From positions 3,348,001-3,412,000 of the forward strand of contig OZ024756.1 in assembly GCA_964016885.1 (NCBI GenBank): 64,000 bases of DNA. The letters are read 5' to 3'. The stretch is from Eledone cirrhosa (lineage: Eukaryota). The notes below the pieces were generated by a model that saw nothing but the letters and a program-made list of their open reading frames with translations, did not search any database and was not told the DNA's origin. Shown here piece by piece: positions 38,840 through 40,407 of the stretch. Every line of letters begins with the position of its first letter. Position 1 is the stretch's first letter. Position numbers and translations under genes: made by a program.

Positions 38840-38998
38840 ATATTGTTATACTTTGGGAGGGTCATGTTGCCAATAAGAAACACACGCACCAGTTGCTTTC
38901 ACTTCAATTTAATTTAATATATATTTATAAATTTACAAATTTATAAATTTCTGGTTGGTTGGTTGGTTCCACAACCAGATAGTTGTTTATATATATAT

Positions 38999-39043
38999 AG
39001 TCATAGTTCTTTCGTCACACACTCTGTGACCTCTTCAGTGACT
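38999..39043 (-). ncRNA. Hammerhead ribozyme (family A)
   Basis: Reverse complement of 40134-40178. Confidence 0.85.
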
Positions 39044-39339
39044 GGGGATTTCTTTCTTCGTTTCTGTGCCTTTCCTTTCTTCTATCCTACGCCATTTTGT
39101 TTGTGTGTGGGTTGCGTGCTCAGTTTGCGCATGCGCCACATCCGGGTGTCTGTGTGTGTTTGTGTTCATTTTTCTATTTTTCTATTTATATTTGTTTGTT
39201 TATTTATTTATTTATTGTTGGTTGGTTGTTTGTTCTATGTGTGTGTGTGTTTTCATTTTGTCTTGTGTGTGTTTTCATTTTGTGTGTGTTTTCAATTGTA
39301 AGTTGTTTATATATGTGTGTGTGTGTTTTCATTTTGTCC

Positions 39340-39587
39340 TTAATTGTAAGTTGTGATGTTGCTGTTCCACTCATATTTTCTATTTAATTTTGGTTTTAAT
39401 TCTTTTATGCTTACTGCCTCTGTAATTTGCCTAAACATTGCGTCTTTCTTGTGTGTGGATTCTATTTTTATTTCTATGCTCTCTAATTTACCCCTGTGTT
39501 CTATCTTAGCATGTTGGTAGAGCACAGATGATTCTTTACTATCTTGGAGGTCTCGCCAGTGTTCATTTATTCGTTCCCCTATACTAC
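39340..39587 (-). pseudogene. GIY-YIG endonuclease C-terminal fragment of a Penelope-like element (left arm)
   Basis: SIGERINEH..SVLYQH...H..RQITEAVSI..KPKLNRKYEW. Confidence 0.8.
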
Positions 39588-39589
39588 GA

Positions 39590-39837
39590 GTAGTATAGGG
39601 GAACGAATAAATGAACACTGGCGAGACCTCCAAGATAGTAAAGAATCATCTGTGCTCTACCAACATGCTAAGATAGAACACACGGGTAAATTAGAGAGCA
39701 TAGAAATAAAAATAGAATCCACACACAAGAAAGACGCAATGTTTAGGCAAATTACAGAGGCAGTAAGCATAAAAGAATTAAAACCAAAATTAAATAGAAA
39801 ATATGAGTGGAACAGCAACATCACAACTTACAATTAA
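39590..39837 (+). pseudogene. GIY-YIG endonuclease C-terminal fragment of a Penelope-like element (right arm)
   Basis: Conserved R..EH, catalytic E in R...EA..I, and P.LN of GIY-YIG; stop codon followed by 3' UTR, so the EN is C-terminal. Confidence 0.8.
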
Positions 39838-40031
39838 GGACAAAATGAAAACACACACACACATATATAAACAACTTACAATTGAAAACACACACAAAAT
39901 GAAAACACACACAAGACAAAATGAAAACACACACACACATAGAACAAACAACCAACCAACAATAAATAAATAAATAAACAAACAAATATAAATAGAAAAA
40001 TAGAAAAATGAACACAAACACACACAGACAC

Positions 40032-40087
40032 CCGGATGTGGCGCATGCGCAAACTGAGCACGCAACCCACACACAAACAAAATGGCG
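40032..40087 (+). promoter_or_regulatory. Candidate pLTR promoter: ETS-, NRF1- and YY1-like motifs
   Basis: CCGGATGT 40032-40039, GCGCATGCGC 40041-40050, CAAAATGGCG 40078-40087; motif match only. Confidence 0.45.
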
Positions 40088-40133
40088 TAGGATAGAAGAA
40101 AGGAAAGGCACAGAAACGAAGAAAGAAATCCCC

Positions 40134-40178
40134 AGTCACTGAAGAGGTCACAGAGTGTGTGACGAAAGAACTATGACT
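40134..40178 (+). ncRNA. Hammerhead ribozyme (family A), same strand as the EN
   Basis: Core CTGAAGA 40139-40145, GAAA 40164-40167, predicted cut after 40173. Confidence 0.85.
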
Positions 40179-40407
40179 ATATATATATAAACAACTATCT
40201 GGTTGTGGAACCAACCAACCAACCAGAAATTTATAAATTTGTAAATTTATAAATATATATTAAATTAAATTGAAGTGAAAGCAACTGGTGCGTGTGTTTC
40301 TTATTGGCAACATGACCCTCCCAAAGTATAACAATATCGGTTTCAACACACGATTTCAGATAAAGAATCTTGCTAAACAAATTCAGAAACGAAATATATA
40401 TGTATAA

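Follow-up and report, generated by a model that had tools for sequence, protein, structure and literature searches.

The palindrome described here is very probably a young, non-autonomous insertion of a Penelope-like element (PLE) in a known layout. It lies in a 64,000-nucleotide stretch of Eledone cirrhosa DNA (GCA_964016885.1, contig OZ024756.1, positions 3,348,001 to 3,412,000; hereafter the window) that is made up mostly of TA arrays with short islands. We consider it probable that a 5'-truncated PLE came to stand head to head with its own mirror in (TA)n at the time of insertion, through the joining of two cDNAs begun at fixed sites, one of which had been copied on itself. Taken alone, the palindrome is an ordinary scar of PLE insertion. 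A one-sided tail of 30-40 bp together with an inverted 5'-truncated copy is typical of PLEs (PMC8557442), and palindromes at inverted PLE junctions have been reported (Arkhipova et al. 2013, PMC3846280). The sequence-only reading had implied that the structure is surprising, which was overstated, both because this combination is the described norm and because six further two-armed insertions are found within the same window. With the PLE insertions described in PMC3846280 and PMC8557442, the palindrome shares a 5'-truncated copy beside an inverted copy, a palindromic junction, a one-ended tail and a simple-repeat target. It differs from them in that its tail is 57-60 nt rather than 30-40 nt (PMC8557442) and in that truncation stops at the same point in both arms, so that a near-perfect mirror of 748 bp extends into the endonuclease.

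The geometry first proposed for the palindrome (748-bp arms, a 2-nt center, one substitution and a tail on the right arm only) was confirmed by direct comparison of the arms (Table 1). These are reverse complements at 747 of 748 positions; the single mismatch (39494/39683) makes the minus-strand reading HRG and the plus-strand reading HTG, the unpaired center reads GA, and moving the center by one base produces approximately 500 mismatches in 900 positions. Pairing ends at 38839/40338, beyond which the right arm alone extends into the tail. Both ends of the insertion run into (TA)n, which bears out the proposed association of the element with this target; AT overlap with the target blurs both limits of the tail. 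Each arm has the order claimed for it: endonuclease C-terminus, TAA (39835-39837), CA-rich UTR, hammerhead and pLTR end. Spacerless palindromes of this length are normally unstable. Because the center is 2 nt, the description of this one as spacerless is nearly but not strictly correct. The claim of recent activity is upheld by the identity between the arms and by the copy at 15004-15319, which matches the palindrome copy at 314 of 315 aligned bases.

Table 1. Features of the palindrome insertion and of the other two-armed insertions in the window
Feature	Position	Strand	Remarks
(TA)n target array, left flank	37568..38839		
Left arm, without tail: endonuclease C-terminus, 3' UTR, hammerhead, ORF start	38840..39587	-	ends at site A, 24-26 nt into ORF
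Hammerhead motif, mirror, left arm	38999..39043	-	pattern scan
Endonuclease fragment on left arm, 84 codons read through center	39340..39594	-	E-value 6e-24 against profile of relatives
Unpaired center, 2 nt	39588..39589		minus-strand reading completes Arg codon of conserved GETxR motif
Last 82 codons and stop of GIY-YIG endonuclease	39589..39837	+	R, H, E and N positions align with relatives
Right arm	39590..40337	+	mirror of left arm with one substitution (39683 vs 39494)
CA-rich 3' UTR	39838..40133	+	~76 nt longer than in 41-kb copy
Hammerhead motif, minimal type I	40134..40178	+	pattern scan; core 40139-40167; cut predicted at 40173, following CUA
Likely first 28 codons of element ORF	40312..40395	+	open from ATG to tail end
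Tail, right arm only	40338..40395	+	runs to site B; likely ORF codons 9-28
(TA)n target array, right flank	40396..40914		no mirroring of left flank
Sibling (15 kb)	15004..15507		tail arm and 183-bp perfect inverted arm, the latter ending in internal AT run
Second, related family, same layout (30 kb)	30089..30661		long tail-less arm with own hammerhead, to site A; short tail arm
Older sibling (37 kb)	37046..37567		tail arm and tail-less arm to site A; arms 193/212 identical; small deletion by center
Sibling (41 kb)	40915..41610		long tail arm that includes an endonuclease fragment; then 15-bp fold-back and 14-nt stub to site A
Sibling (42 kb)	42195..42397		tail-less arm to site A, joined via short microhomology to tail alone
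Sibling (58 kb)	57926..58296		tail arm joined to shorter inverted arm, without fold-back

Protein comparisons support the identification of the element as a PLE with a C-terminal GIY-YIG endonuclease. The plus-strand fragment retains the second R, H, E and N catalytic positions and both CCHH histidines, and the GIY and YIG strands are missing. A full phmmer scan gave 152 hits at E ≤ 0.001 (150 listed; best identity 56%), and among 27 proteins scanned, chosen as the best and longest of the 150 listed, PF01541 (GIY-YIG) matched seven at E ≤ 0.01, three above the cut-off. The Pfam evidence for GIY-YIG is indirect, coming from the relatives. The fragment itself is blank (0 of 4 window peptides) because the break directly follows the YIG motif, and the refuting condition named in the sequence-only reading, absence of a profile hit, partly misfires for this reason. 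A search with a 681-aa hit (P0028) returned 195 proteins (120 listed), and an alignment of 38 long RT-EN relatives contains the RT motifs, a CX4CxxC linker, CCHH and the R/H/E/N residues. When 1,774 window peptides were compared with the profile of these 38 relatives, only three matched: the two arms (E-values: 6e-24 and 2e-23) and the copy at 41 kb. An Atlas search gave eukaryotic clusters, with PF01541 in 15% of the members of one of them, and the named relatives among the matches listed are Octopus and Holothuria records. Word-index protein searches with the fragment, directed at longer proteins and at proteins near its length, found nothing. One metagenome locus was found and rejected as a chance match inside a bacterial-type gene cluster.

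The endonuclease stop codon directly ends the fragment, and the endonuclease motif falls in the last 30% of 62 of 64 long relatives; the exclusion of the Naiad/Chlamys type by the sequence-only reading is therefore sound. RT codons are present in the relatives and absent from the palindrome copy and from the 64-kb window; the palindrome copy has no RT and so is not autonomous. Between this copy and the one at 41 kb, the endonuclease codons differ by four synonymous and eight non-synonymous changes, an uninformative ratio. The model of relative P0168 (pLDDT 85.8) has telomerases as its best structural matches (Z 14.6, rmsd 5.6, 412 aligned), which tie within 1 Z unit, and the match does not demonstrate IFD homology. 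Ahead of the telomerase-like part, this model has a long helical N-terminal region (residues 10-162). PDB sequence searches gave nothing useful for P0001 or P0168, and a PDB search with the relatives' alignment gave one weak RT match. Several relatives carry PF28514 (DUF8422). Five distant endonuclease hits (P0092, P0116, P0121, P0139 and P0146) have the same C-terminal layout, and four of the five form their own supported branch; given this distant P0092 group, the lineage of endonuclease relatives may be broad.

The tail likely corresponds to codons 9-28 of the element ORF and would thus lie inside the ORF start. Between the frame that opens at 40312 and that of the second family at 30591, 11 codons have changed, 7 of them synonymously (P ~0.008 if a quarter are expected). 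The motif [FY][NDS]TR, which was picked after the sequences had been seen, lies within residues 1-25 of four proteins that represent three unrelated relatives, with 5 occurrences in 73,278 positions. Local alignment of the N-terminal peptide with 74 long relatives was not significant, as 157 of 1,000 shuffles scored as high. In Pen2a_Av, the pLTR and tail likewise hold the first ORF codons (12 then 22 aa, compared with ~8 then 28 here; PMC3846280).

An anchor motif just inside the ORF occurs 12 times in the window (with ≤3 substitutions) in two related families, and all 12 of the ends found with it run into TA arrays. Six of them (30091, 37567, 38842, 41608, 42197 and 59266) stop at site A, approximately 25 nt into the ORF, and pass directly into TA; the other six (15062, 30614, 37108, 40335, 40976 and 57987) continue through the tail, which is the 57-60 nt between site A and site B (approximately 84 nt into the ORF). 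Two tail-less arms end elsewhere, at 15 kb in an internal AT run and at 58 kb somewhat short of site A. The two fixed end sites fit two internal starts of reverse transcription. Such starts are known from a Poseidon PLE in vitro, where both strands of AT-rich DNA are cut and extended and two internal starts bound the tail (PMC11167929). That element, PAc of Anolis carolinensis (Frangieh et al. 2024, PMC11167929), resembles the present one in its C-terminal GIY-YIG endonuclease, a hammerhead near the ORF start, an AT-rich target and a pair of element ends within the ORF start that delimit the tail. It differs in that the entire hammerhead here is upstream of the ATG, with a predicted cut 139 nt from it, and in that the sites here, at ~+25 and ~+84, both read AAT followed by target AT.

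Seven insertions in the window, a small sample, have two opposed arms. Because their centers differ, the center appears to have been made anew at each insertion. Three are fold-backs with long mirrors (the palindrome copy, 15 kb and 37 kb) and three (42 kb, 30 kb and 58 kb) simply join arms of unequal length; at 42 kb and 30 kb, a long site-A arm meets a short tail arm at short microhomology. The second PLE family (30089-30661 and 59196-59268) agrees with the first in ORF start and site A but has a hammerhead of its own, and its tail is slightly shorter. The copies in the window differ from non-LTR retrozymes, which are tandem head-to-tail non-coding units, in being dispersed and head to head, two of them with endonuclease codons.

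Comparison of the two readings through each center suggests that, at the three fold-back centers, native sequence extends further on the tail-less arm. At the palindrome center, the tail-less arm reads an Arg codon and the tail arm a Ser codon; among the 150 listed hits, 82 have the full GETxR motif, and this position is R in 66 and S in none of them. The word-index searches returned no near-identical protein that could supply the residues presumed native upstream of this center. At 37 kb, direct comparison plainly shows the native sequence reaching further on the tail-less arm. The same polarity at 15 kb is weak, amounting to ~5 nt with one mismatch within an A run. The polarity is opposite at 41 kb, where a 15-bp fold-back lies on the tail arm and no native inverted repeat is present.

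The mechanism that we favor would begin, as suggested by PMC11167929, with the RT-endonuclease nicking both strands of AT-rich DNA. Each nick would then prime reverse transcription internally, at site A or at site B. In the palindrome copy, the site-A cDNA would cross the hammerhead and UTR into the endonuclease codons and halt at the GETxR motif, after which its 3' end would pair back on a few complementary bases; fill-in synthesis would produce the mirror arm, and this would anneal to the tail-carrying site-B cDNA. In general form, the 3' ends of the two cDNAs would either join by microhomology or one would fold back and be copied until it met the other. The unequal-arm joints at 42, 30 and 58 kb require two separately primed cDNAs. 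A first-strand cDNA attached to the target cannot make the tail by copying itself, so that a second priming or endonuclease trimming is needed. The 41-kb insertion supports fold-back in that its 15-bp fold-back stops and then joins a site-A stub. The in vitro data come from another clade, in which the start site shows no homology to the target, whereas site A of the present element has an overlap of ATAT with its target. How PLEs acquire their inverted repeats and tails is, according to PMC8557442, an open question. Twin priming applied to PLE inversions was not found in the available text of PMC11167929, PMC3846280 or PMC8557442, and a literature search combining Penelope, twin priming and inverted gave no PLE paper by title. 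With seven two-armed insertions, two fixed end sites and a readable junction polarity, the mechanism makes predictions that can be tested by a genome-wide count.

The published account of head-to-head PLE palindromes (PMC3846280; endonuclease resolution of the tail, PMC8557442) is that an antisense RNA folds at its 3' end and primes itself, the hairpin duplex being inserted by staggered endonuclease cuts that leave a one-sided tail. This predicts the same loop polarity as is seen at three centers, but it does not readily produce the plain unequal-arm joints or the site-A stub at 41 kb, and the tail maps in vitro to two RT start sites on sense RNA (PMC11167929); we regard it as unlikely here. 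It is less likely again that two independent first-strand cDNAs were each extended to the same broken 5' end of the RNA and that their identical, weakly self-complementary 3' ends annealed without fold-back. The product would be the same, two priming events are needed in any case, and there would be no need for a hairpin with a 2-nt loop (the 5-bp hairpin at the palindrome center has no predicted stability on its own, 0 kcal/mol). However, this would require a pair of cDNAs with an identical stopping base in each of three insertions, and the fold-back at 41 kb, with its subsequent jump to a stub, represents a copied cDNA end.

That a simple insertion was made palindromic later, by repair of a hairpin-capped break or by gene conversion, is very improbable. 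The near-perfect identity of the arms would suit such an origin, and (TA)n surroundings are fragile, but the mirror ends at the element's own site A, in common with five other ends, and does not extend into the flank. Under the favored reading, in which the mirror is made by fold-back at insertion, later gene conversion could still have kept up the identity of the arms; older siblings are asymmetric near the center, and this asymmetry could date from insertion.

The junction is known from the assembly sequence, and long palindromes within simple repeats are hard to assemble (PMC8557442 mentions assembly problems), but a fold-back read or assembly artefact is very unlikely for four reasons: such a read should mirror the tail and flank too, and the flanks are not mirror images (across 161 offsets, no more than 3 of 39 flank positions containing G/C agree); the arms differ by one base; the tail-less end falls at a family-wide site, where five other ends in the window stop at the identical base; and the older, diverged sibling at 37 kb has the same layout. 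A search of sequencing runs with the right arm and tail, rather than the junction, found some of this sequence in 20 of 24 listed runs. Five of the 24 hold at least half of the words, four from two samples of one organism and one of a second, and the best runs may be the source of the assembly.

The sequence-only reading had suggested that the element may fit Hydra or a related PLE clade. The likeness to Hydra consists of a C-terminal endonuclease, a (TA)n target, a hammerhead near the end and, in the relatives, KDHK in the RT1 region (PMC8557442); the (TA)n preference is not diagnostic, because it is shared with Naiad. Craig et al. 2021 (PMC8557442) define Hydra as a clade that has lost CCHH and carries a CxCX5C linker together with canonical hammerheads. 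The window fragment, by contrast, has HxxxxH at the CCHH histidine positions, the relatives have a CX4CxxC linker and ORFs of up to 1,175 aa, and helix III of the hammerhead is 2 bp here compared with 3-4 bp in 26 Hydra rows of File S2. The relatives, though not the window copy, differ further in having DKSG rather than DKT and a long A-B' insert where Hydra has no IFD. The Hydra reading is thus disfavored by the retained CCHH histidines, the relatives' CX2-5CxxC linker and the 2-bp helix III. Among the relatives, the CCHH histidines are present in 124 of the 150 listed hits and both cysteines in 56 of the 60 that are long enough, and 37 of 43 have a CX2-6CxxC linker. This zinc-finger linker sets them apart from Penelope and Poseidon, which are without one.

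The relatives share with Nematis and Neptune their domain order, CCHH and CX4CxxC linker, and the short linker resembles the Nematis rows of Fig. S2 (PMC8557442). Their RT is different, with DKSG (the commonest form), YGLRKDHK and GGAIG or GGPIG in place of the usual motifs. Between motifs A and B', 69 of the 74 relatives of at least 600 aa have 129-138 aa, the remaining five falling outside the search patterns. In the Fig. S1 text of PMC8557442, this spacing is, by eye, 60-63 across Penelope, Poseidon, Nematis, Neptune and Hydra, ~84 in one Naiad and roughly 120-150 in two telomerases. Canonical PLEs have no insertion between A and B', with sporadic exceptions in Coprina (PMC8557442); homology of the relatives' insertion to the IFD was judged by position and length only. 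On these motifs, the endonuclease is best described as Nematis- or Neptune-like, whereas the relatives' RT is not.

Based on these comparisons, the relatives may represent an unnamed PLE lineage. Neptune is paraphyletic (PMC8557442), and the lineage could therefore sit inside it. The same eight PLE clades are listed in the available text of a bioRxiv retrozyme paper (10.64898/2026.07.22.740005), and no paper naming such a clade was found in the literature outside subscription journals, Repbase and Dfam. Of six lineage motifs sought in the supplement text of PMC8557442 (the first 400 characters of long rows), five were unmatched and one was off-target; endonuclease motifs were not found in the same text. 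The canonical thumb motif is present in 0 of 29 fragment hits, many of which may not reach the thumb region. In a tree of endonuclease fragments, built from few columns of this lineage's fragments only and without an outgroup, the window fragment falls beside an Octopus protein (94/82). A single lineage member served as the query in collecting the long relatives, and the window copy is tied to them by 84 residues and the short N-terminal motif, the RT features being those of the relatives only. More tentatively, and somewhat short of probable as a joint proposal, the relatives would form a widespread PLE clade in marine animals combining a C-terminal CCHH endonuclease with a telomerase-sized insertion in the RT fingers, and the scars, whose loop would be native on the tail-less arm, would record twin target-primed fold-back. 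If such a clade is separate, an insertion at the IFD position would occur together with a C-terminal endonuclease, and the link between the IFD and an N-terminal endonuclease in the PLE scheme would need to be revised.

The putative hammerhead of the right arm consists of a 5-bp stem I, CUGAAGA with one extra base, a 6-bp stem II, GAAA and a 2-bp helix III. The pattern scan of the window returned 10 motifs, of which eight belong to this family, one to the second family and one is unrelated. The putative core with stems I and II is present in eight arms of the palindrome's family and one of the second. An Rfam scan at the gathering score gave no hammerhead hits. Stems I and II fold as expected, with folding z-scores (-1.46 to +0.40) that are not significant. 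Minimal PLE hammerheads are reported to occur in opposite-strand pairs separated by 100-700 bp (Cervera and De la Pena 2014, PMC4209133). Those of metazoan PLEs resemble the present motifs in that helix I is short and helix II long, in the extra base that precedes helix II and in the G10.1-C11.1 closing pair, as well as in the pairing of motifs from the two strands at distances of a few hundred bases. The helix III segment GAAC differs from theirs in not being palindromic, and a dimer of this type would be expected to carry two A-A mismatches. In older copies (37270, 37421 and 58150), CUU replaces CUA at the predicted cut site, a subfamily mark. In the unrelated core (11702-11725, plus strand), stem II is 4 bp long and the helix III segment is palindromic.

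Other palindromes are present in the window. One family, 116 bp in length with a GA center and located beside TA arrays, has full copies at 15532-15647 and 35748-35863, whose differences are mirrored in both arms and which have their downstream flank in common; partial matches lie at 678-801, 28189-28244, 51695-51739, 60718-60761 and 18429-18463. A second family, with 76-bp arms and a 3-nt center (48322-48476; also 45549-45693), has many single-arm copies, including half copies at 2226-2301, 17514-17591, 27938-28015, 55746-55812, 44710-44767 and 57590-57631, and possibly represents the ends of a further TA-targeting element. A single-copy palindrome at 25498-25570, with 34-bp arms and a 5-nt center, lies between TA runs.
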